Source: Ascidiella aspersa (lineage: Eukaryota). Taken from it: a DNA stretch of 64,000 nt. Under the pieces are notes generated by a model that did not search any database, was not told the DNA's origin, and saw nothing but the letters and a program-made list of their open reading frames with translations. The stretch lies in the NCBI GenBank assembly GCA_963924565.1, contig OZ004611.1, positions 26,474,001 to 26,538,000 on the forward strand. The letters are read 5' to 3'. A program made the translations under genes and the position numbers. Positions 2 through 53,654 of this stretch are shown here, one piece after another. Position 1 is the stretch's first letter. Every line of letters starts with the position of its first letter.

Positions 2-118
2 TTTGAACTCGTAGGCAATCGAGCAGTGATGAGTCGGGCTGAGTCGCGTGCGAGTAATACGAGTAAGATGTCGGCTTTGTCGAGACCCGGAACTCAAGCT
101 CGGATCGAAGTTGATGAG
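2..118 (+). CDS. EFCAB6: EFCAB6-like exon (5' end outside window)
   Basis: Open frame FELVGNRAVMSRAESRASNTSKMSALSRPGTQARIEVDE; donor GAG|GTATG, phase 0. Confidence 0.8.
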
Positions 119-9100: not shown

Positions 9101-12100
9101 ATTGGTGTAGTTTAAAATTGCTAAAATATCGATCATAACGACAATAATACAAAAACGAAAATTTTGACCGAATTAATTAAAAACCGTGGAAGCAAGATGT
9201 ATTCTGCTTTAAATTGGCAAACTGCAAATGCAAACCACATCGCGTTAAAGTAAGCCACATTACATTTATTACTGCAACTTGTTTCAACTTTTTATTGTAA
9301 AAATCAGTAACTTTAACTTCAAAATTAACAAAATTTAACGACCTTGTGGACACAGTGTCGCGTTCCTTAAAACATATTTCTGTAAAAATAACAGTTTACC
9401 AGGCAATTAATAGCAACACTGACTTTATTCCGATATGCCCACAAAACCACCACTGGTCATTGAAAAAGGGTAGGCTATAGTTATATTTAATAGAAAAGTA
9501 TTGCACAGACAGACCTCTTTTTAATTTTTCGAACGAGATATTTGTTACTTTATGACAAAAAACAAATATGTGCAATGTTCAATTCACAGACAAGGAGCAA
9601 AAAGTCTCTGGGATGCTAAGTCAGTGGCTTCACGAAGAAGAACCAAGCCGCTGGGTGGCGCTGCTGCTGTCGCAGCTGGAGAAAGGTAATTTCCCTTTTC
9701 ATATAAAGTCCCTTGATTCTCTATTTTTTTTTCATATAAAGTCCCTTGATTCTCTATGAATGTGATGCTTCCCTTATAATGTCGTACTGACCAACATTAT
9801 AGGCACATCACTTGTTTACACGTTTTGGCCGACGTCATAAGTTCAAAACTCATAGCAGGCTAGATTTTTTTAGCCATGTCTTGCTGTCACTAAACACTAA
9901 ACCCTGGTCGACTGATATCGGTAAAGCCATTTTAAAGGCATCCGGTATATTAACTAATCGGGTTTTAATTGTTATACTACACCTAAGATCTTTGACTGCA
10001 AAATGTTCAAAGATCATCGTTCAAAAATGTTATTTCAGGACAATCGACAATCTTCATGACATCCTTCGTGATATCGTGAGAAACGACATGAACAAGCTCG
10101 AGAGCGAATTTCGTGAGCTGGATGAGTACAACAGCGGGCGTCTCACGCAAGAGATGATGTATCAACTTCTCACCAAGTAATTTTATGATTTTTTGCTTGG
10201 AGCATAATGGTTAAACGTTGTAGTAAGACGTAGTAAAATCCCAATACAGAACATTTTTTAATGTCTCAATTTATTTTCAACAATGTGAGGGAGCACTGAT
10301 TCTAATAGAAGTATAATTTACTGATAGAAGTATAATTTACTGCCAAGGCAGACTACCGAAACAAAGGAAACAAGGAAAAATACACTATAAAAACCTGGGT
10401 AGTTAGTATAGGTAATGTTTTCTGTTTTGATTTTGATTTTGAACGGAATACTAAAAAAAGCTTAACTGAGATTTTGCATTAAAATGGAGTATAAAACGTT
10501 GTATAACAGCATTTAAAAACTACATTTTACGTAATCATTGCAATAGAAAAAGCGAAAAAATGTGTCAATTTTTACCTAACGCGGGTCGTAATTAAAACAG
10601 TAATATAACTTTTTTGACATGAATATATAACCTTCACGCGAATACTTTATATATATATTCATTAGCTGGTGTCGGAATATTTTGTAACAGTAATATTATT
10701 TTGTTTAGTTTTAAATAAGTTCCCTGGATTAGGTCGTATATTTCGCGACCCGCGGCATTTTTTTGTCAATTCTTTTGGGCACAAAACAATTTTTTCTTTT
10801 GTCAGAATGACGATCAACCCTCCGGTTACGAGAGGCGAAATTCGTCGGCTTTGGGAAACCTTCATCGTCAACAAAAACAGGACCCTCAACTTTCACCAGA
10901 TGGTTCGTCACTACGGCTACTCGCTAAAGTGAGTACTCTAGTAACTCTCAGACGCAAGTGATTGTTATGTCTAAGAGCTGTGTTGCAATTGTTGATATTT
11001 ATTAAAGTGCCTACTTGTTCTGAGCAGTAGGTTTTATTTAACTGTTGTAAATCACAAGCAGTTGCGTTTTGTTCTCCTTTATTTGCTATTACATTAAGCG
11101 ATTTGCAATTTTACAACACGTAATAGGTTCACTTTGTTTTTATTAACATGCAACAGCAATAAAACGTTTTCTGATTTAATTGACAATACATTTTATCTGA
11201 CTTTGACTAATGCTCTAATTAATAAGCATAGTGTCCTAAATCATTAAAATGCATGTGCGTACAACAGTGATCTATGACCTTATTTGATCAACTGATTTCG
11301 GTTAGCTTCTATAAAGGCTCCTAAAGTATGATAAACACGTTCCGGAAATAAACGTTTAGATAACATATCCTTTTGTCGCCACAAGCGCGAATTAACACGG
11401 TAGCAAGATAAACGAGGAATAAAACATATAATGACTATCAGTTGACGCCGTAGATATTACGAATCCAAGTTACAAGTAACACTGGGAAAAACTACATAAC
11501 AAACTAAACACGACTGAATGCAAACAGTGCGAACAGAACCCGAGCAATGCGAAATGCAACAAAAGCTATACATTTCAAACAAAAGGAAAATAACGAATTC
11601 CGCGCCAGAAAGTAATAAAGTATTAACTCATAAAAACTGCATATTAGCTGTATTTACTTTTTAATTTAAATTATACATTTCCAGTTAGTGAACAGCAATG
11701 CATTTGTTTGCTTGTACAGATCAGCAGCATTCCCGAACGCCAAGGTGGTGCCACCACAGAGAGGTGATAACGACTTTATGGTGAGATCCAGGAAGTTGAA
11801 CTGCGCTGCCGATATGCTCGAAGACAACCTCAGAGCTAAGGTGGGTCTGAAATACTTGGACCGATTCAACCACGCTTGGAAAAATCCCAGTTTCGTTCGA
11901 TGCATCAAATAAAAAGCGATTTAAAATAAAGCGAATGCTTCTAAGGAATAAAAATTTGCCAATCAGATATATTCAACGCACATTAAACTGCTGTGGTATA
12001 CTTTAATATTGTTTGGAGTAACCACTATGAGACGAAGTATCAACCAACTTTAAGTTAATTAAACTCTTAAAAGGCATTTTTATAGAAACTGTGTGTATTA

Positions 12101-15045
12101 ACAGCTCAAAAGTAGTGGTACGATGCGTTGGTTTTCTTTTTGTTTTTTATTGCAATTTTTACTAGTGCACATTTATTTTAGCAGTTTTTTGCCTACAAAT
12201 TAATCAAACGAAAAACAGATTAACGCAACGGAAAACAAATTAACAAAACGGAAATAGTATCTACAGAAAAAGTTGTTAAACAATAAGTTTTAATTTAATC
12301 TAAGCGTACAAAACATAATTTTTATCCAGACTCTGTAAGCAGTTGCAAATCTATGTTAATCGATAAAAATTATATCTTTACAAGTTCAAGGTCAAATATA
12401 TTGTTTACCGTTTTATTTCAAGGTCGATTAATTTTGGGAGGACCAGAAAAAATAGTATCTACACCAACAGATCCTATACAACACATTTTAATTTTACCTC
12501 AGTGTAAAAAGCATAGCTTTTATACAAACCTTATACGCATTTAAAATTTTAATTTAGCAGAAAAAAATTATATTCGTATGTTCAAGGTCAAATATACTGT
12601 TTACCGTTTCATTTCAAGGTCGATTATTTGTGGGAGGACTTGCGACGCGAATTCGTCGAGATGGATCCCTATCACACCGGATTCGTTTCGCGTGACGAGT
12701 TTCGTGACGTGCTCATGGAGCTGTGCGTTCATCTCACGAATCACGAGGCGGAAATCATCGCCACGAAGTTTGACACAAACACGGACGGCAGGTAAGAACC
12801 AGGGCTGCAAAGTCGGAGTCGAACTCGAAATGTGGGACTCGAAGGAGTCGGTTTGTTTTGCTGGATTTGTACTCGGGACTCAAGTAAGATCACGTAAGAC
12901 TACCCGAAGACATGCGAGGACATGGCGCACATTAATGAAATTTGAATTTATCAGTGCTAAACTTTCTTATGTTTTTTTTATTCACTTGAAGCTTACTAAA
13001 AGTTCATTGAAGAAAATTGGGTCGCCAAAGCTTCGTTGTTCTCAGTATCACTTAGTATTTGAGTTGCGGCGAAAAAAGGTTTTGAGCAGTGTTGTAAAGT
13101 CCAAGTCAAGTCATTTGTGAAATAACTTAAGTCCAAGTCAAGTCTTTTTGAATAAATAACAAATCAGGTCATTACTAGATCAAATTAATTCCAAGTCAAG
13201 CCCTCGTCATAAAAAGTAAACGTTTAAAACTGGTATACTTGTTCGATTATATGAGTAATAAATTAACAAAAACTTTAAACGCACCGTATAAAGCAAGCAA
13301 ATTGGTTTTACCCCATTTAAAGCAAAGGCTTAATGAAAAGTAATTTGTTCAAAAGACTTAAGTCAAGTCGTTTGTCCAAATGACTTGAGTCAGTCAAACC
13401 TTTGAAAAAAATGACTTAAGTTCATTTAATTCAAGTCATTCAAATCATTGACTTAAGTAATTGAAACACTTGGTTTGAGAACTTTCGGTTTAAACTGATT
13501 ACCTATACGATTTGGTATAAGGGACGGTACCTGGTAAACATTTCCGTTTAATCGAAAACTTTCTCACATTTGTAGGGTTTCGTACGTCGAATTTCTTCGC
13601 CCATTCGCGCAACGTCGTCAGCTGTGGAAGAACGGCAACAACATGCTCTCCATTCTCACCCACCCCCTTGCTGAGTTCCCGGTGTCTGACATCGCACTGA
13701 AACCCACCAAAGGACTGGAGGCCGTCACCTCAAAGCTAAAGGATCAGGTAAAACACTATTGATGGTCGAAAATCTGCTTCGGATATAAATAAATTTTCCT
13801 AAGTGCAAAATTGTGAAAAACTATGTTATTGGCGCTAAAAGCATAATTTTTATTTAACAATTTAACAAAATTACAAACGCACGATAAAATTAAAAATAAG
13901 TGTTGTCAACAATCTTTTTATATTATATTTTCAATTGTTTTAGGCTAAACATTTTTTCGAAACTAACAAACAAAACTCTTTTTAATAGTCTGCTGAAAGG
14001 TAAAAATTTAAACTTTCAGCTATGAAATAATTCCATATACTGTCATCCCGGCCCACTGGCTTACGAAGAAAGTAAATTGAAATGTTTCCTGCCTGGTTAT
14101 TGTACCATATTAGACCCACAAATGTAGCCTACTACATTGAAAACTAGCATGAAGGTACTTCCTATATCGCCTTATGTGCAAACTAATGTTTTTACTTTTA
14201 TCTAAATACGACGAAATGCGTATACCTTTCGTCAGTAAACTTTAACTTCTCCATAATATCTGTTAATATTTCTTTTCAGTTGTCTGGAGATTGGAGGACA
14301 TTGCGGCGGGCGTTCAAGAAAATGGATCATTCATCTGATGGAATGCTAACTCTGCCCGAGTTTAGGAGCGTTCTTAAACTCTGCAACGGTAAGTAAATAG
14401 GTAATAAAATACTATTATTAATTATTGTTTTAATATTATCATTATTTTTGTTGTTTAAATTGGGATCCAAGTCTGTTCCAACAGTGCTATTTTGAAATAA
14501 ATTTTGAAATAAAGTTGTCTTAGATCTATTTAATACCCTATGTGGTTCTGTTTGGATTGGTGAGTAAATGCACGTTTGACTTGGACAACATGAGCTCCAA
14601 AATTTCCAAAAGTAGCTTAAAAACGAGCTAATGTGTTTGGATGAAGTTGACTTTGTTTTTGGAAACAAATCAACAGACGAAATTGTTACAGAAAATCCAT
14701 TGATCATTTGAGCTATATAAAGTGCCTTTCAGAAATTTGGCCCATTTTTCATTTGTGTTGGGGACAATAATAAATACAGCAATGCACAATTTGTTTTAAA
14801 TAAATTATTCGCCGTTTGAAAGCTCATTTTTAGTTGGTTTACTCATGTATGAACTGTTTTGAAGCATGTTTTGTCCTGCATTAATTCACCTATTGTAAAG
14901 CCCCTTTTGCATTGCAGTAATTCTCGACGAAGACGAAGTGTATCACGTGTTATCCGAGTACGACGATAAGATGTCCGGAAAATTGGATTACAAAAAGTTT
15001 ATAAGGGACAATGTCAGCACGGCTGTGTCTAAAAAGTCCGTGTAA
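2..15045 (+). CDS. EFCAB6: EF-hand calcium-binding domain-containing protein 6-like; 5'-incomplete gene, 17 coding exons in window (~817 aa)
   Basis: Exons joined by hand: 2-118, 648-826, 1272-1413, 4285-4457, 5147-5298, 5938-6083, 6809-7005, 7995-8171, 8942-9052, 9590-9685, 10039-10176, 10806-10928, 11720-11840, 12619-12791, 13576-13747, 14280-14388, 14918-15045. All introns are GT-AG with matching phases, giving one open frame to TAA at 15043-15045. It has repeated degenerate EF-hand pairs (e.g. FKNNDPEGKGNVTREAL, FVEMDPYHTGFVSRDEF). The C-terminus WRTLRRAFKKMDHSSDGMLTLPEFRSVLKLCNVILDEDEVYHVLSEYDDKMSGKLDYKKF resembles EFCAB6 as I recall it; orthology was not tested. Confidence 0.85.
648..826 (+). 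CDS. EFCAB6: EFCAB6-like exon
   Basis: CCGCAG| LEMALRNKIRTGGYFAIRQAFKNNDPEGKGNVTREALLHII... AG|GTAAGT. Confidence 0.9.
1005..1173. mobile_element. Intronic fold-back/palindromic non-autonomous element with a short telomeric-repeat core
   Basis: ~50-bp imperfect inverted arms (about 1047-1096 vs 1123-1173) around TAGGGTTAGGGTTAGG; internal TGGTCCGG/CCGGACCA repeats. Confidence 0.6.
1272..1413 (+). CDS. EFCAB6: EFCAB6-like exon
   Basis: GCAG| LHLENQSIVKFDEFYAQFRE...MSASQ |GTAATG. Confidence 0.9.
2148..2194 (-). ncRNA. Minimal type-I hammerhead ribozyme motif of the Penelope-like retroelement type
   Basis: Minus strand reads cacc-CTGACGA-a-ggcggctt(gtat)aggttgcc-GAAA-CGTT-ggt: intact core, 8-bp stem II, palindromic stem III ACGT, short stem I (ACC/GGT). 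Confidence 0.7.
4285..4457 (+). CDS. EFCAB6: EFCAB6-like exon
   Basis: TTCCAG| VHAQLKAKTKQRF...EFRNVLNKLGFFMDDVEFEKLWKR |GTCGG. Confidence 0.9.
5147..5298 (+). CDS. EFCAB6: EFCAB6-like exon
   Basis: TTCCAG| YDEGGLGVVNAEKLLRKLGIEF... |GTAAGT. Confidence 0.9.
5938..6083 (+). CDS. EFCAB6: EFCAB6-like exon
   Basis: TTCCAG| STGRSLKP...IEKWIKEKFRQGFQEMKAEFRKGDPQNTRK |GTTTG. Confidence 0.9.
6809..7005 (+). CDS. EFCAB6: EFCAB6-like exon
   Basis: CCCCAG| VSRDVFRRVLSQF...GEISYADFLNKYQDRSE... AG|GTGAGT. Confidence 0.9.
7030..7860. repeat. Degenerate intronic tandem duplications
   Basis: Recurring ATGCGAAYTCMCGRATGAWACA-like and GAGTKYTGAGGGAAT-like motifs near 7328, 7490 and 7811; 7030-7400 resembles 7510-7860. 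Confidence 0.6.
7995..8171 (+). CDS. EFCAB6: EFCAB6-like exon
   Basis: CCTAG| FNKNPRAVSPKS...FHKIDKHHQDVISQQEFRAAIES AG|GTCAG. Confidence 0.9.
8942..9052 (+). CDS. EFCAB6: EFCAB6-like exon
   Basis: TTCCAG| FQLEMSDGEFDIFLEQVPLNEEGDVKYTEFMAQFDT |GTAAGA. Confidence 0.9.
9590..9685 (+). CDS. EFCAB6: EFCAB6-like exon
   Basis: CACAG| QGAKSLWDAKSVASRRRTKPLGGAAAVAAGE AG|GTAAT; phase 2-2. Confidence 0.85.
10039..10176 (+). CDS. EFCAB6: EFCAB6-like exon
   Basis: TTTCAG| TIDNLHDILRDIVRNDMNKLESEFRELDEYNSGRLTQEMMYQLLT |GTAAT. Confidence 0.9.
10806..10928 (+). CDS. EFCAB6: EFCAB6-like exon
   Basis: TGTCAG| MTINPPVTRGEIRRLWETFIVNKNRTLNFHQMVRHYGYSL |GTGAGT. Confidence 0.9.
11720..11840 (+). CDS. EFCAB6: EFCAB6-like exon
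   Basis: GTACAG| SAAFPNAKVVPPQRGDNDFMVRSRKLNCAADMLEDNLRAK |GTGGG. Confidence 0.9.
12250..12639 (+). repeat. ~196-bp tandem duplication that includes a 3' splice site and exon start
   Basis: 12384-12443 matches 12580-12639 (GTTCAAGGTCAAATATAYTGTTTACCGTTTYATTTCAAG|GTCGATTAWTTKTGGGAGGAC); AAATAGTATCTAC at about 12252 and 12450. Confidence 0.8.
12619..12791 (+). CDS. EFCAB6: EFCAB6-like exon
   Basis: TTCAAG| VDYLWEDLRREFVEMDPYHTGFVSRDEFRDVLMELC...FDTNTDG AG|GTAAGA. Confidence 0.9.
13087..13471 (+). mobile_element. Non-autonomous hAT-like element (CAAGT-repeat family), copy 1
   Basis: Starts CAGTGTTGTAA; many TCAAGTCA repeats; degenerate right end TTGAAACACTT; near-TSD GTTTTGAG/GGTTTGAG; similar to 53264-53654. 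Confidence 0.7.
13576..13747 (+). CDS. EFCAB6: EFCAB6-like exon
   Basis: TGTAG| VSYVEFLRPFAQRRQLWKNGNNMLSILTHP...KLKDQ |GTAAA. Confidence 0.9.
14280..14388 (+). CDS. EFCAB6: EFCAB6-like exon
   Basis: TTTCAG| LSGDWRTLRRAFKKMDHSSDGMLTLPEFRSVLKLCN G|GTAAGT. Confidence 0.9.
14918..15045 (+). CDS. EFCAB6: EFCAB6-like last coding exon
   Basis: TTGCAG| ILDEDEVYHVLSEYDDKMSGKLDYKKFIRDNVSTAVSKKSV* (TAA). Confidence 0.9.
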
Positions 15046-23390: not shown

Positions 23391-25486
23391 AAAATATAAC
23401 GCAACTTATAGTTAGATTTAAAAAGGTCTGCTTCTCATAGCGTATTGCATATTTTTACCAACAATTTTGAAGAAAAATACGTCGGTTCCAGGATCCAGCA
23501 CGTGACCAAGGCCTTCCACCAACAAACTGTATTTCTTGCCTATTTAAACTATAAAATGAAAACATTTTTCGCGCTCCTCGCTAATCGAAATTAAGTTTCT
23601 AGAAGGTCGTGTAATCGTTTATAAAATTGTTTTAGCCCAAATACGTCTTGCGTCTTATCGCACTCTCTAAAATAAAAGTTTTGGCAACGATATACAAGCG
23701 TTATTAAAGTATGTTTGCCCTTAAACGTTTGAATTGAACGTAACACCTCTCGTTCCCAAACCTGAAACTAAATAAATAAACAACTGTGTTGTGTACTTAA
23801 GGTTGCTTCTTTATGACGCGCCACAAACAAAAATCCTGGATCCGCGCCTGCTACGAGAAGCTATGTATAAAAAAACGAATGCAAAATATTACATTTATTA
23901 GAACATGACTTTCGCAAAATATTTTGCAGAAACAGTTTTGCAGCTATGTATTTTTTATAAAATTGTTTTTTTCTAAACTACGTTCTATAATGGATAATGG
24001 TACTTGATTCTCTAAATACGTTATTTCTGTTCCTACTATGTATAAGCGAAATACCAATTTTACGTCAAACACTTTCCCTGATTAACGTATGCGTTTGGTC
24101 AGCATTAAATTCATAAAATGAAATGATTTTAATTAGTCAGAAATCTGTAATTACTTATTAAAAAGCATTAAAAAGTATTGTTTTACGTTATAGCCAATTA
24201 AAACAAATTTTCTTCCAAAAAAACCCGAGGATAGTCACGTGATATGGTTTTGACTTGGGGCGCAAGTAATCAGGGAAAGCGGGAAAACTTTGTCGAACCA
24301 AATGTGGAGAAAAAGGACCACGTGCCATTAGCAATGCGGTTAGTCTAATCAGTATAGCTGAAAGTTATTGGAGTAAGGTTGTGCTTTATTACACGTAGGT
24401 TAGATAGGATTACATTGAGCGGTGGTAATAGGTCTGTATTTGTGTAAAATCGTTTATGTAAATCTCGTATAGCTTTATAGATAGATTTTATAGGAATTTA
24501 CGGGGTGAGGTTAAATTGGTAACATAACTTCATATAAATTTCGCAGAGTGATTTTTGCCAGATGAACTATGCTCATATTTCGAAAGTTCAACACTTGTTT
24601 AGGATTGTTTCTTTGCGGGGCGATGTTCTTTTGACCGTGCCAATGTTTCAGGTGAGAATAAAAAAAAAATAAAAAATGTTTCAGGTGATAATCTATTCGC
24701 GAAATGACATAATTAGATGGGTTTCGGGCATTTTTTAATTTGCAAAGGAAAAGCTTGCCGGTGTACTGATGCTTGGTTAACGTCGTTTGTCTTTTGCCCT
24801 TTATTTGGGCAATAGTTTGTTGATCCTAGTTATAATTCAAAGGTCTTATTTAGTAAACTATTCGCTGCGTGCGCTGCAAATATATTTCCTTTATCTTTTG
24901 TCTGTTTTCTAAGCCAAACCTTTCTTAGTTTGCTTTGCGTTTTGTGTGTGATCGTAAAAGTCGACCGGGAATTGGTATTACTCAATACTATAGTGTTTTC
25001 ACCTTACTTCATTGTTAGTTTTGTTATGTATCTTAACGCAGGTTGTAAGGCTTCGAGTTTCCGTCATTAAACATAACGTTACTTAATTAATTAATTCTTG
25101 ACTTACTATATGCAAATATTGCAGCTGGATTAATTTTGTCATATTTAAACTGATTGCGCCATTTTTTTTGACATTTTACCATACGGCCTTAAAACAATTT
25201 AAAGGCCCTTGGATTCCCGTAAGATGAATTTGCATATGTGGAAAGGGGTTTAAATCGACGATAACCGATTCATACCCCATCGCGATATTCTTTAAACGTC
25301 TGTAGCTTGCGCCATGTTCACTCCCCGGGGTTGCGTGGTGGAGCAGCTAAACAATGCGATGAAGGTCAGTGTCGAGGGATAAGAGGTGGAGTTCTTCGGG
25401 TTGGACCCCCCCCCCCAAATGGCAATAGTTCCGTTAACCTTTATATTTCATTTTCCCGAGTCTTCTCTGTGTTTATTTTTTTACAG

Positions 25487-27003
25487 ATTAAGAACAGAGT
25501 CACCAGGAGTTTGGCTGAAGAGGAGAGAGTTATCCCGAAAGCTGTGATGCGAATGTTTAGTAACTTCCTTAATCTTCCCGCAACGAAGGTTAGAATATAT
25601 TCATTTATATGTGGTGTTACATTACTTTCATGCTATTTTAAACGTTTTGTGTTTGAAAACGATGTTTATATTATAAACTTAACGTATCCCTATTTCAGGT
25701 GTGTCCGTAAGCGATAGATTGGTGTGCACACGACAAAAAGGTAATGATTTGCCTGTTTTTTGTGAAATAAATACTTTGCATATCTTTTTTTTCGATGTTG
25801 TGATAAGTTTTATATTTGCATATAATTTCGAAGGCACTGAGGAAGCAGCCCTGCTTCGTCGATGTTGGAATTCGGTTTTCCTGGAAATGAGGTATGTCTG
25901 CAGATAAACTTATTAATTCAACTTTATGTTATGTTAAACATATGTTTCTTAAGAAAGGAAGGGAAGAACCGAAGAACCCCCTTATAATTGATGCAATGCC
26001 TGGCAGCAACAGTATATTCCAAGGAAGGGAAGTAGAATACTGTGGCGTCGATCAGTAGGGGTTACGAAGGAAAGAGCTCAAGCCTGCAGTAAGTGCTGTT
26101 TATTTTTTGTCAATGCTTAGTTGTATAAGACCCTACGACGGAATTTTCTTGCACAGAACCGTTGGAGCACATACACCGGCTCCATTGAATAGCGGACTCG
26201 GGAGAGTGGTACCCACGCCTGCGGTTAGTGTTATAAGGGAATTTACTTGGAGCACGGGTGATGTTTCAATCGACTACTGGCCTCATAAGGAAGACATCAA
26301 GCCTATGGTAAGTACTGTTGCAAAACTTTATTACTTGGTACTTAGTTGGATTGAATCATTTAAGGGAATTTACTTGGAAAGGAAGGAAGAAAATCGGCTC
26401 TATATACCAGCGGACTTTATAAGGAGAACCTCAAGCATGCGGTAACATGCTACGACAAATAACTTTCATTCGACAAATAACTTTCATTCAATAGCAAGCA
26501 AGATTAGATCTAATGACGGAATTTACTTGTAGAGGACCGTTGTAGCACGACGCACGTACATCTGACCCATCGACCAGTTGGCTCAGGGAAGAGATTCCCA
26601 GACATGCTGTGAGTGTTTTTTAGCAAATAATTTAACCTAGTCAATTGCTAGTTTGGTTAGATCTTATGTTAGAGCACTGATGACGGCTTTATCGACCAGC
26701 TGGTTATAAAAGAAGACTTCCAAGCCTGCAGTAGATGCTGTTGTAAAACTTTTGTCATTATTAATTGAGGTTTAATCATCTAACAAAATTTACTTGCAGA
26801 GGAGGGAAGGGAGGTTAAAGATCGTGATATAAGGCGGCTTCATCGATCAGCGGGCTCAAAACGGAGGATCTCAAGCCTTCGGTAAGTGCTGTAACAAAAA
26901 ATTCCACCCTGTCGATGTCTTTGTTTTATTAATCTAAATGTTTCTTGCAGTCGAAGAAACGAATTTATGGTGGAACTCGAATTAAGAACAACAAGATAAT
27001 AAA
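25487..27003 (+). pseudogene. Compact spliced gene built from tandemly duplicated micro-exon/intron units; degenerate or non-coding
   Basis: Candidate exons 25487-25588, 25699-25740, 25834-25891, then 7 related units with donors at 26089, 26224, 26308, 26442, 26609, 26731, 26882; terminal exon from 26951 with AATAAA at 26998; several units carry stops, frameshifts or broken splice sites. Confidence 0.6.
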
Positions 27004-27545: not shown

Positions 27546-28329
27546 TCATTAAAAAAGTTGTATTTTTTTATTCGCTACGTTTTAAAACCTATTGAAGTTC
27601 CCGAATGACCCTGATGACAGAGACTTAATAAATAAACCTGCGTTCCAAAAACAAATGTGTCACTATTATGGGGTCTAAATACATTCTTGGAGAAGGCGAT
27701 GAAGCTTTTCTATAAAACATTTATTTTTCGTAATAAGTTTTTAAGGTGTACATGAACCCCCTTAAGCTAGTTCACGTACGCGTATGAAAATTAATATTTG
27801 CACCTCTTCATTTTGATTGTACATTCGTGCTGTTGTCGTTAAATAAATTTGCTTTGTTTGATCTGGTATCCATTGTATAAAGCTGAGAATATTAAAGAGT
27901 TAACATACAGTTATTAAAAGTAATGACAGAATAAAGTTTTTGCAGTTAATTCGAAATCGTCTTATGTTATAGGCTTGTACCTTAATTTATTGCATGTTTA
28001 AAGCAACGTACAGTTTTATCGTTATAGCTAACAAAACAGGCTCAAAACTTTATATATATTTATTAATAATGAAAATTAATGGAAAAATAACACTTGAAGT
28101 GACGGTTTGTCGCATTATTTTTAAATTTTGACTAAATTAGCCATATTTTTTATTATTTGGCCTATTAAGGCTAATTTTAAACGAATTCATCAATGTTTAG
28201 CTGCATAAGCATACGTAAGTCAGGAAAATATTAGGTCATTTATCGCTGAAAAAGTGTTACATACGGCACTCTGCATATACAGAGCGTTTAGTTTGAAACC
28301 GATTTTTTTTAAGGGCATTTAAAAAGGTT

Positions 28330-28335
28330 TTATCA
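28330..28335 (+). promoter_or_regulatory. TTATCA at -30 to -25 of the Pol III gene (TATA-position element)
   Basis: Same hexamer at the same distance upstream of copy 1 (28330) and copy 2 (29548), although the flanks are otherwise dissimilar. Confidence 0.45.
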
Positions 28336-28359
28336 AAGTAACTTGGACCTTGTTTGTCA

Positions 28360-28823
28360 GCTCCTTGTTGTGGCGTAGCGGAAACGCACTCTGGTTAGAA
28401 ACCGCTATGCCCGAGTTCGAACCCGGTTAAAGGTAAAATCTTTCCCCGGTAGCCGATAGAATTCTATGGGTTCGAACATGATAAAGTAACCTTAATTTCT
28501 CAATCTCTGTTAATGATAAAACTAACCATAAATAACCTCACAATGAACAAGGAGGCGCCGAATCCTGTCCCAGCCTGTGGCGGGATTCGGTTAGCCCGAT
28601 AAAATTTCTTGTATGTCACGTTAAACCCCCAATGCACACAGGTCAGAACACTGGTTAGGTAGCCGCAAGGTTTCCTAGGTCAGCTTAGTCAGGCAAGAAG
28701 TCGCTGCTTCGGGCTGGCAACAGTGTTCGAAAAACTTAGGCCCTCAGAGGGCGTGGCTCAGAGCCACACAATAGGGAACCAGCCCGAAGCAGCGCACGAG
28801 GAGTATAGGCAGCGACTTTTTTT
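28360..28823 (+). ncRNA. Unidentified ~460-nt Pol III (type 2 promoter) structured RNA gene, copy 1
   Basis: A box TGGCGTAGCGG 28371-28381, B box GAGTTCGAACC 28413-28423, T7 terminator 28817-28823, no internal T4 run, several 9-16-bp helices. Confidence 0.75.
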
Positions 28824-29577
28824 GCATAATATTTGAAAAAAAATGTTTATGTTTCTTTGGTAATTTTTCTTTTATTCATTGAAACCCCATATGCCTGATG
28901 TCATTTTTCAGCCCGATTTCTGGTACTTCGTCTATTTTGTGGTGAGATAGTGATTTATTTTCGCCTGATCGGTTAGGTTGGGTGTTACAGTGTGTTTTTA
29001 CAAGATTGGGCTCTACAGTAGCGTTACAGTCAAGATCGAAGGTTTTACTACTCGTCGATCGGTGAGAGAGATTGACTTCTACACTTACGGGCGAAGAAGT
29101 TACATTCAAGTCAGCAATTGTCAAGGTAATAATTACGGATTATTGGAAAGTTAACTTACGTTAATGTTAAGCTTATTAAGTCGAATTTACAATGAACTTC
29201 GAAGGTCGGTGAGAGAGATTGACTTTTACACTTAAGGGCGATGAAGTTCCATTCAAGTCAGCTATTGTCAATGTTCATTTCGGATTATTGGAAAGTTAAC
29301 TTACGTTAATATTAAGCTTATTAAGTTGAATTTACAATGAACTTCGAATGTATCGAAAGGTTAGGTTAATTTAACTTGTTCAACTCAAGATTTTATTTAT
29401 GATTGCTAATATTGTCATTTGAAGGTAATCGAACCGTTGACCAACGGAACATCAGGCCAGATAACTTACCACTGGACCATATTACGAGCTGCCAGAGTGA
29501 GATGAGAGTTGCCTTAGAAACAATTGTTTTCTATCGTAAAACATTTGTTATCAGGGATCTTTGCAGCAAAATTTTCA

Positions 29578-30041
29578 GCTCCTTGTTGTGGCGTAGCGGA
29601 AACGCACTCTGGTTAGAAACCGCTACGCCCGAGTTCGAACCCGGTTAAAGGTAAAATCTTTCCCCGGTAGCCGATAGATTTCTATGGGTTCGAACATGAT
29701 AAAGTAACCTTAATTTCTCAATCTCTGTTAATGATAGAATTAACCATAAATAACCTCACAATGAACAAGGAGTCGCCGAATCCTGTCCCAGCCTGTGGCG
29801 GGATTCGGTTAGCCCGGTAAAGTTTCTTGTATGTCACGTTAAAGCCCCAATGCACACAGGTCAGAACACTGGTTAGGTAGCCGCAAGGTTTCCTAGGTCA
29901 GCTTAGTCAGGCAAGAAGTCGCTGCTTCGGGCTGGCAACAGTGTTCGAAAAACTTAGGCCCTCAGAGGGCGTGGCTCAGAGCCACACAATAGGGAACCAG
30001 CCCGAAGCAGCGCACGAGGAGTATAGGCAGCGACTTTTTTT
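29578..30041 (+). ncRNA. Unidentified Pol III structured RNA gene, copy 2
   Basis: Same A/B boxes and T7 run; same length as copy 1. Confidence 0.75.
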
Positions 30042-30793
30042 GCATAATATTTGAAAAAAAATGTTTATGTTTCTTTGGTAATTTTTCTTTTATTCATTGA
30101 AACCCCATATGCCTGATGTCATTTTCAGCCCGATTTCTGGTACTTCGTCTATTTTGTGGTGAGATAGCGATTTATTTTCGCCTGATCGGTTAGGTTGGGT
30201 GTTACAGTGTGTTTTTACAAGATTGGGCTCTACAGTAGCGTTACAGTTAAGATCGAAGGTTTTACTACTCGTCGATCAGTGAGAGAGATTGACTTTTACA
30301 CTTACGGGCGAAGAAGTTACATTCAAGTCAGCTATTGTCAAGGTTAATTACGGATTATTGGAAAGTTAACTTACGTTAATGTTAAGCTTATTAAGTCGAA
30401 TTTACAATGAACTTCGAAGGTCGGTGAGAGAGATTGACTTTTGCACTTAAGGGCGATGAAGTTACATTCAAGTCAGCTATTGTCAATGTTCATTTCGGAT
30501 TATTGGAAAGTTAACTTACGTTAATGTTAAGCTTATTAAGTTGAATTTACAATGAAGTTCGAATGTATCGAAAGGTTAGGTTAATTTAACTTGTTCAACT
30601 CAAGATTTTATTTATGATTGCTAATATTGTCATTTGAAGGTAATCGAACCGTTGACCAACGGAACATCAGGCCAGATAACTTACCACTGGACCATAGTAC
30701 GAGCTGCAAGGCGGGGGTTGAGAGTTGCCTTAGAAACAATTGTTTTCTATCGTAAAACATTTGTTATCAGGGATCTTTGCAGGAAAATTTTCA

Positions 30794-31378
30794 GCTCCTT
30801 GTTGTGGCGTAGCGGAAACGCACTCTGGTTAGAAACCGCTACGCCCGAGTTCGAACCCGGTTAAAGGTAAAATCTTTCCCTGGTAGCCGATAGAATTATA
30901 TGGGTTCGAACCTGATAAAGTAACCTTAATTTCTCAATCTCTGTTAATGATAAAACTAACCATAAATAACCTCACAATGAACAAGGAGGCGCCGAATCCT
31001 GTCCCAGCCTGTGGCGGGATTCGGTTAGCCCGATAAAAATTCTTGTATGTCACGTTAAAGCCCCAATGCACACAGGTCAGAACACTGGTTAGGTAGCCGC
31101 AAGGTTTCCTAGGTCAGCTTAGTCAGGCAAGAAGTCGCTGCTTCGGGCTGGCAACAGTGTTCGAAAAACTTAGGCCCTCAGAGGGCGTGGCTCAGAGCCA
31201 CACAATAGGGAACCAGCCCGAAGCAGCGCACGAGGAGTTTTAGTCAGGCAAGAAGTCGCTGCTTCGGGCTGGCAACAGTGTTCGAAAAACTTAGGCCCTC
31301 AGAGGGCGTGGCTCAGAGCCACACAATAGGGAACCAGCCCGAAGCAGCGCACGAGGAGTATAGGCAGCGACTTTTTTT
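30794..31378 (+). ncRNA. Unidentified Pol III structured RNA gene, copy 3 (121-bp internal duplication)
   Basis: 31119-31239 is repeated from 31240; the junction creates TTTT at 31238-31241. Confidence 0.7.
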
Positions 31379-31989
31379 GCATAATATTTGAAAAAAAATG
31401 TTTATGTTTCTTTGGTAATTTTTCTTTTATTCATTGAAACCCCATATGCCTGATGTCATTTTTCAGCCCGATTTCTGGTACTTCGTCTATTTTGTTTGTG
31501 GTGAGATAGTGATTTATTTTCGCCTGATCGGTTAGGTTGGGTGTTACAGTGTGTTTTTACAAGATTGGGCTCTACAGTAGCGTTACAGTTAAGATCGAAG
31601 GTTTTACTACTCGTCGATCGCTGAGAGAGATTGACTTTTACACTTACGGGCGAAGAAGTTAGATTCAAGTCAGCTATTGTCAAGGTTCATTTCGGACTAT
31701 TGGAAAGTTAACTTACGTTAATGTTAAGCTTATTAAGTTGAATTTACAATGAACTTCGAATGTATCGAAAGGTTAGGTTAATTTAACTTGTTCAACTCAA
31801 GGTTTTATTTAGGATTGCTAATATTGTCACTCGAAGGTAATCGAACCGTTGACCAACGGAACATCAGGCCAGATAACTTACCACTGGACCATATTACGAG
31901 ATGCAAGACTGAGATGAGAGTTGCCTTAGAAACAATTGTTTTCTATCGTAAAACATTTGTTATCAGGGATCTTTGCAGGAAAATTTTCA

Positions 31990-32453
31990 GCTCCTTTGTT
32001 GTGGCGTAGCGGAAACGCACTCTGGTTAGAAACCGCTACGCCCGAGTTCGAACCCGGTTAAAGGTAAAATCTTTCCCTGGTAGCCGATAGAATTATATGG
32101 GTTCGAACCTGATAAAGTAACCTTAATTTCTCAATCTCTGTTAATGATAAAACTAACCATAAATAACCTCACAATGAACAAGGAGTCGCCGAATCCTGTC
32201 CCAGCCTGTGGCGGGATTCGGTTAGCCCGATAAAAATACTTGTATGTCACGTTAAACCCCCAATGCACACAGGTCAGAACACTGATTAGGTAGCCGCAAG
32301 GTTTCCTAGGTCAGCTTAGTCAGGCAAGAAGTCGCTGCTTCGGGCTGGCAACAGTGTTCGAAAAACTTAGGCCCTCAGAGGGCGTGGCTCAGAGCCACAC
32401 AATAGGGACCAGCCCGAAGCAGCGCACGAGGAGTATAGGCAGCTACTTTTTTT
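31990..32453 (+). ncRNA. Unidentified Pol III structured RNA gene, copy 4
   Basis: Same boxes and terminator; one insertion, one deletion, and GCAGCGAC changed to GCAGCTAC near the 3' end. Confidence 0.72.
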
Positions 32454-33230
32454 GCATAATGTTTAAAAAAAATTTTACGCTTCTTGCTTTATTTTTCTTT
32501 TATTAACTGAAAACCCTACTGCCCGATGTTTGTATTTTTCAGACGGTTTTAGGTTTGTTTTTTTTTATTTTGTGGTGAGATAGCAATTTATTTTCGTCTG
32601 AAGGGTTAGGCGTTACAGTGTGTTGCCACAAGAATAGGGGTTCCATATTAACTTACAGTTATGATCGAAGGTTTTACACTTGTCGATCGGTGAGAGAGAT
32701 TAAGTTTTACAGTTTGGGGCGATGAAGCTACGTTCAAGCCAGCTAGTGCCAATTAAGGTTATTATATATCGGATTACTGGAAAGTTAGGGTTCGTTAATG
32801 TGAAGATAATAGAGATGAATTTACAGCGAACTTAGAAGGTTTAATACGTATCTTACGATACTCTGGAAGTTATATTTAGAATGGATTATTAGTTATATTT
32901 AGAATGGAATGGCAATTGAAGGTAATCGAACCATAGACCAATGGAACATCAAGCCAGATAACTTACCACTCGGCCATATTACAAGATGCGATAGGGAAAG
33001 GAGAGTTGCATTAGAAAGAGTTGGCAATCGTTTAAGCAACAATCAATGATGGAACACTTGCGCACTGATACTGCGTACGATAAGAGCAGAACATGTCTAT
33101 AAAATCATTTGACTACAACAATTCTTGACGATTATTAATTCAAACGTTCGACATCCGGAATATTTACACATCTTAGAACATCTATCGCAGCTGGAAAAAA
33201 AGTTGACCCCTTTTCATATATTTTCTTTTA

Positions 33231-33636
33231 TTGATTAAAATGCGTTGGCGTTTTTTATTGTGTGTTCTCGTTTATTTATTTGTATTTTTGGTTAGAAGGT
33301 TTGTGATGCAGTTATACGTTGGTCCGTTTATATCCGGAGAACATTCAGGTTGGGTTTTTAGCATCGCAGTTAAGACCTTACTAATAGAATCTTTAGGGCG
33401 GGGCAACTTGGCTAATAGCTAAGGTGGATTAAATTACAGATGAGCTACTTACTTTTAAGGTCACATGATAATTCCTTGAGCTTCAAAGGTTTAATACGCC
33501 TCGAACGGTTAAGTTCACAAGTGCTACTGTAACTACATTTAGGGTACAATATGTCGGCAGTTGGTAGTTTAAGAACCGTAGACCAATGGAACATCAGAAT
33601 GAACAACCTTCCATTAGACCACATCACAAGATGGTA
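33231..33636 (+). pseudogene. Decayed coding remnant, homologous to the tandem-array spacer
   Basis: RTVDQWNIRMNNLPLDHITRW* (about 33572-33636) aligns with RTIDQWNIKPDNLPLGHITRC (about 32928) and RTVDQRNIRPDNLPLDHITSC (about 29430), mostly through synonymous changes; upstream frame is broken by stops. Confidence 0.5.
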
Positions 33637-36600
33637 GATAAAATAAAAACTCGGGTTAAAACGCTAAAATTATTTACGCCTCAAGCAATAATATAACTAA
33701 GCAGTTTATCGTACCATGACTGGGGGTTAACAGACCCGCTACGAGGTTGCGATGGCTGAGTGCCTAAATACATCTTGGAGGTCAATACTATTTCCATGAA
33801 AGTTACCACTAGGAGAGGTATTGAGCGTATCTCGTAAAATTCATGTCGACCTTAATTTCATGCGACACAACAGAGCGAACGTAACAGGTTCGAAGCCTTT
33901 GAAAGTTACCTAAAATAAAACTATTAGCCGTACTTCGGATGTTGGTGTATGACAAGAGTAATTCAAACTTCATTTCCGTGAGAAGTGATGTTCGATAATT
34001 TCGGATCAGAGCCGATAATCGATGCCAAGTATTTAGTATCGGTATTCATCTGATACTCGGGCTGTACAGGTTCCCCAAAAAATATTGCATTTCAATCCAT
34101 GGTTTGCGGTCCCTGAAGGCGATTTGTACATATTTACATTTATCGGTTGATAGCCGTATTTGTCTTGTTCAAAAACGTAATGTTGCTTTTGCACAACAGT
34201 GCACAGGTTATAGATGAATACAGCAGATGTGACTGTTAACGAGACAAAGATTGTTTTTGCTTGCGAAAACAAGAAACAAACTGATACCTTACATCAGCCA
34301 AAACTCACACTGTAACATACTTTTCCCTTTACTATTTTGTGTAATATCGCTTCACACAAATTGCTGAAGTAGGCCATCGCTTTTCAAATAAACAAGCTTT
34401 TGTAAATTGAAAAGCAGATAAATATGACGTATCTTTTTGAAGTAATCTCCGAAAAAATTGTCATATCCCAAAACAATTCCTAGAGTCGCTCGCCTGCGTG
34501 TGGCCCGTTTTTTCAGTTTTCAACAAACATTAATGAAATTATGTTGTGTGAAATTGTAAGGGTTTTTAGAATACCATTTCCTACTAACAGTTTTTAAGTT
34601 AAGTTATTACTCAGGTACAGAATCGTGTGTTCATATGCTTTCTTTTAATATCCATCCAATTGGCGCTTGAGGATTTTGCTTATAAATCATGACTTGAATT
34701 TAATGCATTAATAGATTCAGTCTCCAGTATTTCACTTTAAAAGCCAAAGACTCAAATTGGACAGAAGAGTTTTATTGACAACACTGGGACTTGACTAGCG
34801 TGTCTAAAATGCCCAACTGGCAATGACAATGCTTATTTTGTGTCACTGTCACCAAGCAGTGCATATTTAGAGTAAACCGCCCTACGACAAAATCCTTGAG
34901 AGAAACCCGCCGAGAACTACACGTTGATTCTAATTACAACTGACAGAAGACATGCAATAACATAGGTACGGCGATGTTTGTCATGCCTGCCACTTGCGAT
35001 TTGACTTGGAAACGCACCTCATAAGTTCAGTTTATAGATCCCATTATACTTACACCGTTTTCTAAAATATCCTCTTTTAATGTCGTCAAGGAGGTTTTTA
35101 AATACTGTTCTTTCACCCTAATATAAATTACTTTTATCTTGACATCCTTAAGTATATTTTGTCTTTTGTAATTTCGTATGACGTCACAACGTTACGTCAA
35201 AAAACAAACAATCTACAAAACGTTTGTTCCAAATCAAACTCGTGCACAAAAAGCAGCTAAAACCCGGTATAATCGCGCGAAAAGTAGCGTTTAGTTGGTT
35301 TTAATTGGCTTTACTTTTAGTTAAGTAGTTCACGTGACGCATTATGCGCATTCATGAGATTAGCATACTGCTCAAAATAACAGGATTTATAGCCTAAAAA
35401 ATTGCACTTTGTAGAGTTTATTGGTCACACGCAACATGTTAAAGTATGCATAGCGCTTTTGCACTGAATAGATATTTTTAAACGCCAAAAAAATCGAAAA
35501 AAAAGTTTTAGCAAAAAAAGATATCTATATTCAAAGAAAAAACTTTGTAAAAAAATGCAAAATAAATAAATGTTAACGTTTCTTCAGATTTTCATGCCAA
35601 CACAAGGTTGTAAAATCAAGAAGACCTGTCAGTCAGCATGGTGGTTAAATACTGTAAGACACTTCAGGAATCCAAAATAATATCTGCCGAATCTTGTTTA
35701 ACTTAAAATACGGTAATTCGGATATACATTTACACTTAGAAAAAAAGTGAAAAACAAGAGGCCTAGTAGTTGTAAAGATTTTATTCGGCCTGTTTGAACT
35801 TTGGTTCAAAACAATTGCCAGCGCGCTGTTCCATTATACCTTGTCGATCGGCAGGCGCACCTCTCGAAAAGCTTGTCCTAGGCAGGCCAGAGTCTTCTCT
35901 AGGGAGTGTACAAGTGGCTTTCCGCCGCGTTCGGAGCTCGTTTTCCTTCGCTTTATTGCGACCGCAGCTCGCCTTGACAACGCCGCTTTTACATAAAAAA
36001 AACTTGCTTATGCTGCTGTTGCTGTATTGGCTGCTGTACGCCTGTACCTGCTCCCCCGACCTTTCGTGCGCCGTTGGGAGGCTTGTTTCTATCAGGAAAG
36101 AAAGGTTGACGGACGGAATATACTCCGTAAAGTGCGCCCGCCAACTTGGTCGCTCAGGTTTTGTGTCAGGTTTTTACGTCGAATGAAAGCAACAACTTTC
36201 TTGATAATCTAACGCGGCCTATTGTTGTGTTTTCGATGAGCGGTTCATAGTTGTAGGTTTTAGTAGGAAGTAGCTACCTTTGTTTAAGCTTAGCCGCATT
36301 AATAGTAATGTGACTGTTTGATTTTGCCTAACGTTAAAATGATAGATTGAATGCTGTTAAACAACCAATATTTTGTTATCACATCATTGATATTTTGTTA
36401 TCACACCAATGCGGTGATCTCCATGAGCTACAAATCTGATGGTGGTCAAACGGTGTGATGAAATTCAAGTAAGTTTTTGCCCGTGAACGAATGGATATAA
36501 GCTTTGTCGGGAGATCCGTTAAAACGCATGTAGACGCACTTTTCGTGTGATGCGATTTGACTAGATTAAATTTGTATGTTTGTTGAAAAAAAAAAAAAAA

Positions 36601-40450: not shown

Positions 40451-43108
40451 CCAAGTGTGAAAAACGTGAGATCTCAAAGTTTTCAAAGCGGTTGCGTAAA
40501 GTTGGCAGCACTATCCGCTTGCGCTGCGAATTTGGAGAGGCTTCTTGTCGTCGTATAGACCTCTCACGCCTTTCCCCTGACGCGAGTTTAAGGCAGAAAC
40601 TCGGTAAAGCGATCCCCCCGGCGAGCTCCCAGCGGGAGATGACCTGCGATTCGTCTCACCGCACAGTCGAACCTTCCACATTACCTGGCACAGTCGCCCA
40701 AGCGCCGACGCGTTGCGAGAATCGGCAGATTCCAGACCTTCAAACGGTAGGAGTCGAAATATAGGTTTTTGATTTGTTGTGCGGGGGAGGAATGAGCATT
40801 GGTTCAGGGAAAAGATGTGGATGACTAATAGATGACTAAAAAACTTGCGAAATCTATGTGTAACTGTTTTTAAGTAACTGTATATTTTGCGTATCTATTT
40901 TAATTTCCGAGCGATTTTATGCAACAGTGAAACATAAATAGAACCGTTTTCCTATTTTGTAGTCGCAAATCTGACTAGATTGGGCAATATTGCAAAAATA
41001 TATTTATATTTTCCCAATTTTTAGTCGCAAATCAAACTATATTGTGTAAAATACTGAGAGGGCGGATCTACTATTGGCTAAATACATTTATAAACTAAGC
41101 TTTAAGGAATTAAACAAATTTCAAGGTTAGTTTTGCATTTTCTTTTGTTGAATCAGGTCTATAGCGCTTTCGTGCAGCTGTTAAACTTAAATATAGGGTT
41201 CTTCCTATTTATTTTTATAATGCAAAATGAGACAAGTGTGTAAAATTTATTTTGCCTTGTTTGATCAAGTTAATTATGAAATGTATATCACAGTCATAAA
41301 ACATTAATCATTATAATTTTCGCTGTAGCCAATAAGCTTGTACATAGAACAGGTTTGACATGTGGAATAATGCATGATAAACGCCAAAATGAGCGCCTCC
41401 ACCAAATAACGCTCGAAATATTGCTAAAAGTTTTTTTCAGGACTTTTTTTCAGGAAGCAAGCTAAGTGAGGCAAGGCTCTTTTCTCTCTAGCGTAGAACG
41501 GCCTAAAGCCTGCAGAGCCTGTAGGGCGTGTTAAGCTAATCGCATTTGGAAGGCCGAAGGTGGATTTTATTCCCCATCGAGCCGAAGTCCCTATTTCGTC
41601 TCAAGACAAGGCGCTTCCTGTTGTGACATCACAATGGCGCGGGCGCGAATCTCGGTTTCGGTGCGAAAGATAGGCCTGTGTTGATCCCGCCTTAAGCAGG
41701 ATCTCGGGTGCTTTCTGCCTTTTGTGGATATTAAAACTTGTGTAACTAACGCTGGCGTTTTATTTACTTTAACTTTTTGTGCCTATCTGTTTACAATTTA
41801 GATGGGGTTTCCTAACCTTTGGGTATTTAACTATGCAGGGTAATTACCCAATATTCGAGGGATTTCATGGGGGTTATTTGGACAATGATATTGGATGCAA
41901 AATGTTGGACTTTTAATTGTTCAAATTTGTATTGGTATTTAAATGCAATTATCAAGATATTCTTGTTGTGTTTAATCGGTAATTGATGGTAGGTCGTAGC
42001 TTTGTTTTTTTAAGGGAGTGACAAATTTTATAACTTATTCACGAGGGCTATTGACACTAAAACGGTGGAGAACCACTTTTTCTAGATATTTTTTGTCGAT
42101 CAGGCGGTCATTGTTTAAGTTGAAGTCAACTGCTAATATTTCGACAAATTGTGTTTTACTGCTTCCGTGTTTCATGTTGCTGAGGTTGAAGACGTGGTTT
42201 ACCAGAGCAGCGCGGCATCCCAGGTTACCGTTTTTCGCTCAAGTGTGCTGAGAGATTTTCTAAAATAGTTTAATTTAATTTTTTGTTAAATATTTTTGAT
42301 TCCTAATTTTTTGTCAATCTGTAGCTGAAATGTTATCAATTTTTTGTGTCCGATTTAAGTGCTACAAATCACGAATGTTTTTGTGAAGTTGATACCCGCT
42401 GTTTCAATTTCGTTTAAGGTAACATAACGGTAAAACCCTGAGTAAAAATGATAGTAAGGGCGCCGAACTATTTATATTTACTAATTATATTTTATGTAGG
42501 GTTCCGTAAGCCTAAAAGTTGTGAGTAGCAATATAATTATGACACCGCACACCAAGGCGTTTCTGACATCCACCTAGAACGCAAAATGATTTGCTTTAAA
42601 CGTTATAGTTGATTGTAAGTTATAGCTGCATTTTTTTAGAAAGCTTTGTGCTATTTTTTTTATTATAGTAGTTTACCGCAAGCTAAAAACGTAAAATCAC
42701 TGATTTAACTAAAAGCAAGTGCAAGTGAATTTTCCTTGTAACGTACCACAATGTTTTTTACCCTATGGGTCGCCACTCAAAGTTAGGTCGCTGTTTATTT
42801 GGTTGGGCCGTCTACCTCAGTAGTTTACATGATTAGATTTATTGAAATTGGTTGTCTCGAAAAAGTTAAGAAAATTGCTTAAGCAGTACAAAGACGTGGC
42901 TAATATTAATTAAATTGTGAGTTGCAATTTGGCTGGGCCAGTACAATTAGCGGGCCAGTTGAATATATATTAATAAAATTCGAATTGATTTATGCCATTT
43001 GTATTATGCGAAGATAATTGGATCGCCAAAACTTCGTTGTTATACGTACGCTTAGCTTTGAGAAACACTGTATGTAACAAGAGGATCTCTCATCGCTATC
43101 CCGTAGAT

Positions 43109-53263: not shown

Positions 53264-53654
53264 CAGTGTTGTAAGCTAGTCATTTTGGAATGACTTATGT
53301 CCCAGTCAAGTCATTTGTGAAATATCTTTAGTCCAAGTCACGTCTTTTCGAATAAATACTAAGTCTAATCCCTGTCAAGTCATAATTAAAGCAAGTCAAT
53401 TCAAAGTCAAGTTCTTGTACGAACAATTACATGTTAAGCTATTAAAATTGGGTAAACTCGTACGATTATGAGCAAACCTTAATTAAAAATACTAAAAAGT
53501 CAATAGATGGGACAAATAATCCAATTTTAATTTCAACCCAAGTCTTTTGTCTAAAAGAAGTCAAGTCAAGTCATTTGCCCGGAAGACTTAAGTCAAGCCA
53601 AGTCATTTAAAAACAGTGACTTGAGTGCACTTGAGTCAAGTCATTACAACACTG
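53264..53654 (+). mobile_element. Non-autonomous hAT-like element (CAAGT-repeat family), complete
   Basis: 11-bp TIR CAGTGTTGTAA/TTACAACACTG; perfect 8-bp TSD CAAACTGC (53256-53263, 53655-53662). Confidence 0.92.

Follow-up and report, generated by a model that had tools for sequence, protein, structure and literature searches.

RNAs which derive from tRNAs, are made by RNA polymerase III and have been turned into host genes are known from mammals, 4.5SI RNA and others among them. In ascidians a tRNA-derived SINE, Cics-1, is known, and tunicates are the vertebrates' sister group. In a quite different setting, the expression platforms of transcriptional riboswitches are characterized by an early fold, displaced by a later strand before the U tract. 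For 4.5SI RNA, whose function is stated to be unknown in the accessible part of the source, a 16-bp terminal duplex has been credited with the stability of the molecule (PMC10137851). The ascidian locus described here, for which the original prediction had proposed a Pol III RNA with a switch-like 3' domain, resembles the 4.5SI and 4.5SH RNAs, as they are presented in that part, in having a tRNA-derived head, a type 2 promoter and a TATA-like box (near -31/-24 in 4.5SI), as well as few, clustered genes, a T6-7 terminator and a long terminal duplex linked to stability (PMC10137851). A literature search, which covered few subscription papers, returned no tunicate example of a domesticated tRNA-derived Pol III RNA, and no description of the 462-nt tandem RNA itself.

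The analyzed window is a stretch of 64,000 nucleotides (64 kb) of Ascidiella aspersa DNA, recognizable as animal DNA with just one open reading frame of at least 150 aa. Within the window the element is found in four tandem copies, starting at positions 28357, 29575, 30791 and 31987, with a unit length of about 1218 bp; no dispersed or truncated copies were detected in the 64 kb by nhmmer (--max) or blastn (word 7). The four genes, and the features upstream of the 3' domain in the first of them, are the following:

28359-28823, plus strand: gene copy 1, a tRNA-headed Pol III-type RNA with A and B boxes, no internal T4 and a T7 end
29577-30041, plus strand: gene copy 2, 98.3% identical to copy 1
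30793-31378, plus strand: gene copy 3, carrying a 121-bp internal duplication (31119-31359)
31989-32453, plus strand: gene copy 4, in which a substitution disrupts a central C-G pair of the tail pairing, (c), described below
28330-28335, plus strand: TATA-like hexamer, at -29/-24 from the predicted start, presumably functional
28364-28434, plus strand: degenerate tRNA-derived head, with box A at 28371-28381 and box B at about 28414-28424
28359-28554, plus strand: 5' domain (z -4.1), with two 10-bp hairpins, an AU-rich stretch (28479-28545) and a possible closing stem
28557-28591, plus strand: 13-bp hairpin, from folding

These features point to a putative Pol III-type transcript starting at A28359, for which a length of 462 nt is predicted in copy 1, from that start to the fourth T of the terminator (z of the RNA fold, -4.0). 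The TATA-like hexamer is found with identical sequence and offset in all four copies, boxes A and B are separated by 33 nt in each of them, and a pattern search for pairs of A and B boxes in the window returned the four copies only. All copies end in a T7 terminator, and copies 1, 2 and 4 contain no internal T4; taken alone, the T4-free interval is weak evidence, as seven other gaps of this kind, of at least 450 nt, occur on the plus strand of the window. The head gave a full-length but weak match to the tRNA covariance model, scoring 16 bits in Rfam, under the gathering score of 29 bits, with a mismatched acceptor stem (for SINE heads, the criterion is at least 60% identity to a tRNA over 60 nt). 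ARAGORN called no tRNA genes, and no intact cloverleaf was found.

Searching the whole window against Rfam at the gathering score produced no matches. With E values up to 10, the 3' 301 nt (28540-28840) again produced none, while four sub-threshold matches were obtained for 28200-29600 and five for 28350-28560; among these, tRNA is the sole credible one. A match to group II domain 5 (E 6.6) was dropped, the hairpin being without the GNRA loop and the bulge which that domain has. Resemblances noted by eye to the group I core, the SRP S-domain, RNase P P4, the histone stem-loop, pistol and twister were also dropped, with key motifs missing in all of them. Models of 7SK, SRP, RNase P/MRP, vault, Y, snRNA and snoRNA gave no match at the gathering score, nor with the 3' 301 nt at E up to 10, and no GAUC, C/D box or Sm site was found; U7, Y and vault RNAs are, in any case, much shorter than 462 nt. 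Two short open frames of the RNA (57 and 59 aa, two of the 21 listed) were searched and matched nothing. Phage sequences gave no blastn match; a single plasmid match, 57 nt long and AT-rich, was set aside as due to chance. A scan for 20-nt exact identities in bacterial and archaeal genomes gave one locus, where the likeness is limited to 23 nt. None of these searches yielded an ortholog.

Within the 5' domain, the 67 nt of the AU-rich stretch are unstructured, folding at 0.0 kcal/mol, and resemble a 35-nt internal duplication; the possible closing stem is not stable when the full-length RNA is folded. Between the first hairpin's loop (28392-28398) and 28522-28528, in the AU-rich stretch, there is complementarity over 7 bp (-9.2 kcal/mol), and a pseudoknot could be formed there. 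The palindromic core of box B occurs three times, at 28415-28422, 28470-28477 and 28725-28731, and its duplication forms the second hairpin.

As to the surroundings of the array, a multi-exon EFCAB6-like gene extends on the plus strand from 8 to 15039, as detected by tblastn with a Clavelina protein; the exon at 8005-8172 matches EFCAB6-like proteins, best that of Clavelina lepadiformis (91%), then those of Ciona and Styela. Upstream of the array, the region 25400-27000 contains repeated exon-intron-like units of about 145 bp, about 70% alike, two frames of which were tested with no Pfam match. The spacers contain a 145-bp repeat (29059-29348, 30279-30563, 31618-31763 and 32687-32840), with two occurrences each in units 1 and 2 and one each in units 3 and 4; by eye it resembles a small exon with an intron, in a state of decay. 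A relative at 33465-33638 is more diverged. Long inverted repeats with arms of 23-50 bp (1031-1173, 8701-8830, 60342-60418, 60754-60853 and 63166-63341) are probably MITE-like foldback elements, and an element with 16-nt terminal inverted repeats at 61420-61719, 71% related to a stretch at 42749-42911, is probably a non-autonomous DNA transposon. A pair of dispersed repeats (13099-13440 and 53299-53645, 67% identity) contains internal tandem units of 27-32 bp.

The four copies are 97-99% identical to each other. When copies 1 and 4 are compared, 9 mismatches are found over 466 columns in the RNA, against 44 over 231 columns in the 240 nt that follow it downstream (Fisher p about 1e-14), the drop beginning right after the terminator; the downstream flank of copy 4 is only 81% like the other spacers. 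On the other side, the 70 nt upstream of copy 1 show about 55% identity to the other upstream flanks, a score reached by 22 of 2000 shuffles, and the -29 hexamer is in register despite this divergence. To judge from the sequences, the pattern looks like an old duplication, of which the transcribed part would have been kept, later amplified by unequal crossing-over. Gene conversion, however, can mimic such a contrast between RNA and flanks, and for copies 1-3 the conservation of the RNA (about 98%) does not exceed that of the spacer (about 99%).

The 3' domain of copy 1, on which the original prediction was centered, contains the following features:

28646-28728, plus strand: three-way junction (early fold), with a closing helix, a GCAA-capped arm (28655-28678) and helix (a) with a 24-nt loop
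28695-28717, plus strand: strand common to the competing pairings, with 28702-28710 as loop toehold for helix (b)
28740-28767, plus strand: two adjacent hairpins, each with a CAG triloop, with a pair probability of about 0.96 and present in both folds
28779-28794, plus strand: 3' arm of (b), all 16 pairs Watson-Crick, with no change among the five copies of the segment
28795-28814, plus strand: insert of 20 nt that separates the (b) arm from the tail, with an 8-nt direct repeat at its edges (identical at 7 of 8 positions)
28807-28823, plus strand: 3' strand of pairing (c) and T7 terminator (28817-28823), exact in copies 1 and 2 and in the read-through end of copy 3

The three pairings which had been claimed for this domain all exist, and every motif starts at the position given for it. 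Helix (a) is formed by 28679-28686 with 28718-28711 (8 bp, three of which G-U), within a junction closed by eight Watson-Crick pairs (28646-28653 with 28728-28721); helix (b) by 28702-28717 with 28794-28779, all 16 pairs being Watson-Crick; pairing (c), in which 28695-28707 face 28821-28809, has 13 bp, one of which is G-U, and can be prolonged to 15 bp (28709:28807). In copy 4 its 3' strand carries a mismatch.

The idea that these are three competing partners of one segment holds only in part. Helix (b) does exclude (a) and the closing helix, but (a) and (c) share no base: within the common strand, 28695-28709 are used by (c) and 28711-28717 by either (a) or (b). Helix (a), at 28711-28718, and (c) are thus compatible, and the two together make an H-type pseudoknot. 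Helix (b), in turn, overlaps (c) by just 6-8 bases. When the insert is skipped, 22 of 23 positions in the (b) arm plus tail match the reverse complement of 28695-28717. Helices (b) and (c) are halves of one 23-nt fold-back, interrupted by the 20-nt insert, and so slide rather than switch: they are branch-migration isomers with a flat energy profile, stacking varying from -44.8 to -47.3 kcal/mol as the junction point moves. A three-way competition is therefore not what the domain provides. The real alternatives are a state 1, made of the junction and (a), with or without (c), and a state 2, made of (b), to which the outer part of (c) may be added. The fold-back probably originated from one template-switch inverted duplication over an older junction fold, in which case there are two independent folds, not three. 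A further complementarity, of 28793-28804 to the 5' end of the RNA, by which the 5' end would pair with the looped-out insert at -17.3 kcal/mol, was discounted, the count of such sites not exceeding that of shuffled sequences (55-56 of 60 shuffles give as many).

Comparison with shuffled sequences indicates that both folds exceed chance. For the junction (28646-28728) the folding energy is -32.7 kcal/mol (z -3.6), a value reached by none of 300 dinucleotide shuffles and by 11 of 2000 when the (b) arm is held fixed. The junction is strand-specific, the minus strand giving -21.1 kcal/mol, a difference of 11.6 kcal/mol. The partner of (b) is better than all 2000 shuffles, and the tail duplex (c) was equalled in 11 of 2000 shuffles and in none of 5000 with T7 held fixed. 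Helix (a) alone is at chance level, since 1725 of 2000 shuffled versions of the 51 nt upstream bind the segment as well; the G-rich segment has ten other upstream partner sites at -10 kcal/mol or better, as many as are given by 11 of 60 shuffles.

Among the copies of the segment, helix (b) (5 of 5), the closing helix, the GCAA arm, (a) and the two CAG hairpins (5 of 5) are invariant; no compensatory change was found among the 16 variable sites of the four copies, at 97-99% identity. Pairing (c) is damaged in two of the four genes. In copy 4 the substitution weakens it from -21 to -15 kcal/mol; in copy 3 the duplication junction creates a T4 run directly upstream of the (c) tail, which could terminate the RNA without (c). 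Copies 3 and 4 may, though, be decaying.

The order of folding was followed in a truncation series, by nested (pseudoknot-free) folding of growing 3' ends at 37 and 18 C. With 3' ends from 28730 to 28786, these models assign to the closing helix a probability of 0.95-0.999 and to (a) one of 0.87-0.97, and the junction with (a) dominates until about 28788; helix (b) replaces the junction from 28790 and accounts for more than 97% from 28794, at both temperatures. The sequential strand displacement proposed for this domain is hence also predicted here, as far as the step from (a) to (b) is concerned (junction at 87-99% for 28730-28786, then (b) from 28790). In the nested models (a) costs 9-11 kcal/mol with respect to (b), 11 in the full RNA, where the probability of (c) is less than 0.0003 (<0.03%); in the isolated domain (c) is complete in 0.5-2.6% and its outer part formed in 3-16%, its outer pairs reaching 5-21%. 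Nested barriers range from 22 to 36 kcal/mol, those from (a) to (b) from 22 to 27. A 9-bp toehold in the arm-2 loop, worth -18.8 kcal/mol of stacking, opens a path for branch migration which, by a stacking-energy calculation rather than a kinetic simulation, runs almost monotonically downhill (from -33.0 to -38.7); the exchange of (a) for (b) is therefore plausible.

The reading we favor, at close to an even chance, is that of a lineage-restricted, tRNA-derived Pol III-type RNA which refolds in one direction only, (b) and the tail then sealing its 3' end. According to the computed folds, nascent RNA would first form, at 28646-28728, the GCAA-capped three-way junction; the emerging 28779-28794 would then dock on nine loop bases, displace (a) and form the 16-bp helix (b). 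After release the tail, whose complementarity is seen in the sequence, may zip onto 28695-28701 and slide 6-8 bp into (b), leading to one long terminal helix with the insert looped out. Such a helix would likely seal the 3' end against exonucleases and make for a long-lived structured RNA. The folding order is computed; protection of the 3' end and function are suggested by the precedent of 4.5SI. Against sealing, nested models rarely close the tail, and sealing would be partial at best. Against one-way folding, a perfect 8-bp closing helix and a strand-specific junction have been kept, although on this reading the fold would last only about 60 nt of transcription.

The main rival, favored by the quality of the junction, which one-way folding leaves unexplained, is a true two-state RNA, which we consider possible, if distinctly less probable. 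In such an RNA, the junction, (a) and (c) would form a pseudoknot locking the U tail, alternating with (b) and a free tail, and a La-like protein or temperature would set the ratio between them; loops 1 and 2 of the H-type pseudoknot would be of 8 nt and 1 nt, respectively. That (a) and the extended (c) are neighbors, separated by a single base, is in line with this proposal, as are the excess of both folds over chance, pseudoknot energies of -8.9 to +10.1 kcal/mol and the nested barriers of 22-36 kcal/mol. The energies were estimated by adding the (c) helix by hand, with four penalty schemes and four helix lengths: of the 16 settings in each case, state 1 is lower in energy than state 2 in 7 for the domain and in 11 for the full RNA at 37 C, the difference (state 1 minus state 2) ranging from -6.2 to +10.1 kcal/mol in the former and from -8.9 to +7.4 in the latter. 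These rough figures lean towards state 1, because state 2 was given no tertiary term, and a second crossing helix in the full-length scaffolds may go unpenalized; when (c) is limited to 8-10 bp, state 1 wins in only one of eight domain settings. A stem of 14-15 bp spanned by 8 nt is, moreover, sterically marginal, and the damage to (c) in two of the four genes, together with the lack of compensatory changes among the 16 variable sites, also speaks against a two-state RNA. The bistability claimed for the domain thus meets divided evidence: nested models put (a) 9-11 kcal/mol above (b), whereas the rough pseudoknot energies put the junction with (a) and (c) within about ±9 kcal/mol of (b) and make two states possible. 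The fuller proposal of a Pol III RNA switch, in which a GNRA junction pseudoknot-locked by the U tail and a tail-freeing helix would decide La binding and lifetime, appears unlikely.

Of the functions assigned to such a switch, gating of termination by (c) is unlikely, because the polymerase holds the U tract in an RNA:DNA hybrid until release, and this tract supplies the 3' strand of (c); from the end of (b) to the tract there are 22 nt. Masking of La binding is possible, but only once the RNA has been released, and by weak pairs (A-U and G-U, with stacking of -6.5 to -8.0 kcal/mol).

Improbable as well is a SINE source gene or relic, whose structure would serve recognition by a LINE reverse transcriptase or fold-back priming, or else be a neutral by-product of template switching. 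With tRNA-derived SINEs, as described in the accessible part of PMC3531059, the element shares a tRNA head with A and B boxes, a body whose origin is unknown and a length below 700 nt; this is the commonest SINE layout, and 462 nt fall within the range. Internal repeats and palindromes are frequent in the element, and copy 3 bears a fresh duplication inside the 3' domain. The ascidian copies, however, are arranged in tandem, with no others in the 64-kb window, they have neither a simple-repeat tail nor a target-site duplication beyond a 5-nt AT word, and their homologous but diverged flanks indicate duplication at the DNA level. A fold-back 3' primer for reverse transcription, as suggested by the original prediction, predicts retrocopies, and the 64-kb window contains none.

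A self-cleaving ribozyme of an undescribed class is very improbable. In HDV-like ribozymes P1 and P2 cross, and P3, L3, P1.1 and a catalytic C are present. The strand order of state 1 (5' strand of (a), 5' strand of (c), 3' strand of (a), hairpins, 3' strand of (c)) resembles this topology, the two main helices of the pseudoknot crossing in the same order, but P3, L3, P1.1 and the catalytic C in J4/2 are missing: just 1-3 nt are left as room for P3/L3, and no catalytic C precedes the last strand. A hand-written HDV descriptor, matched by 2 of 40 shuffles, had no matches inside the RNA on either strand; its seven matches in 28300-29620 all end past the terminator. The self-cleavage once envisaged thus finds no ribozyme family or descriptor match inside the RNA, in which hammerhead and twister cores are also absent, as are Rfam matches of the 3' 301 nt at E up to 10. 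As for a missed tunicate housekeeping RNA, for example a telomerase RNA on a tRNA-type promoter, it is hardly to be expected. In its favor, Didemnum yielded no telomerase, U7 or Y RNA, according to the accessible parts of PMC8704543 and PMC5006418, and the 5' domain offers a 67-nt unstructured stretch. But the best match to a TTAGGG template spans 6 nt, which makes a single repeat and leaves nothing to serve as alignment region (a hypothetical TTAAGG repeat would be matched by a stretch of 9 nt), a terminal ACA box, carried by all animal telomerase RNAs in the accessible part of PMC8480181, is absent, the last ACA lying at 28766, more than 50 nt from the end, and the RNA is far too long for a U7, Y or vault RNA.

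A heavily structured, 462-nt tunicate case would be a new instance of the tRNA-derived route to RNA genes. If both folds are used, the domain would offer a compact and testable model of how structure controls access to the 3' oligo-U of a Pol III transcript; if only (b) is, it would be a tidy case of a fold-back duplication overwriting an older fold.

Among the systems with which the locus may be compared, non-LTR retrozymes also form short tandem genomic arrays of structured RNA in invertebrates, as reported in the accessible part of PMC7229834. In contrast to their 170-400 nt (PMC7229834), the ascidian unit measures about 1218 bp and has its own promoter and terminator, and its RNA is without a hammerhead core. 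The locus resembles the expression platform of a riboswitch in that a strand made later, ahead of a U tract, is predicted to displace an early fold by way of a toehold in its loop. It differs in its eukaryotic Pol III context and in the 22 nt that separate the end of (b) from the U tract; no aptamer known to Rfam was found, and there is no downstream gene to control. If the switch were real, a transcript of eukaryotic Pol III would carry a riboswitch-like device. As to 4.5SI RNA, it is 98 nt long, against 462 nt here, its duplex joins the 5' and 3' ends, whereas the ascidian helix is internal to the 3' domain, and no alternative junction fold is described for it in the accessible part of PMC10137851; the two RNAs would be of independent origin. 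By this analogy the ascidian RNA, which we assign to no family, may be a domesticated tRNA-derived RNA with a 4.5SI-like way of working.
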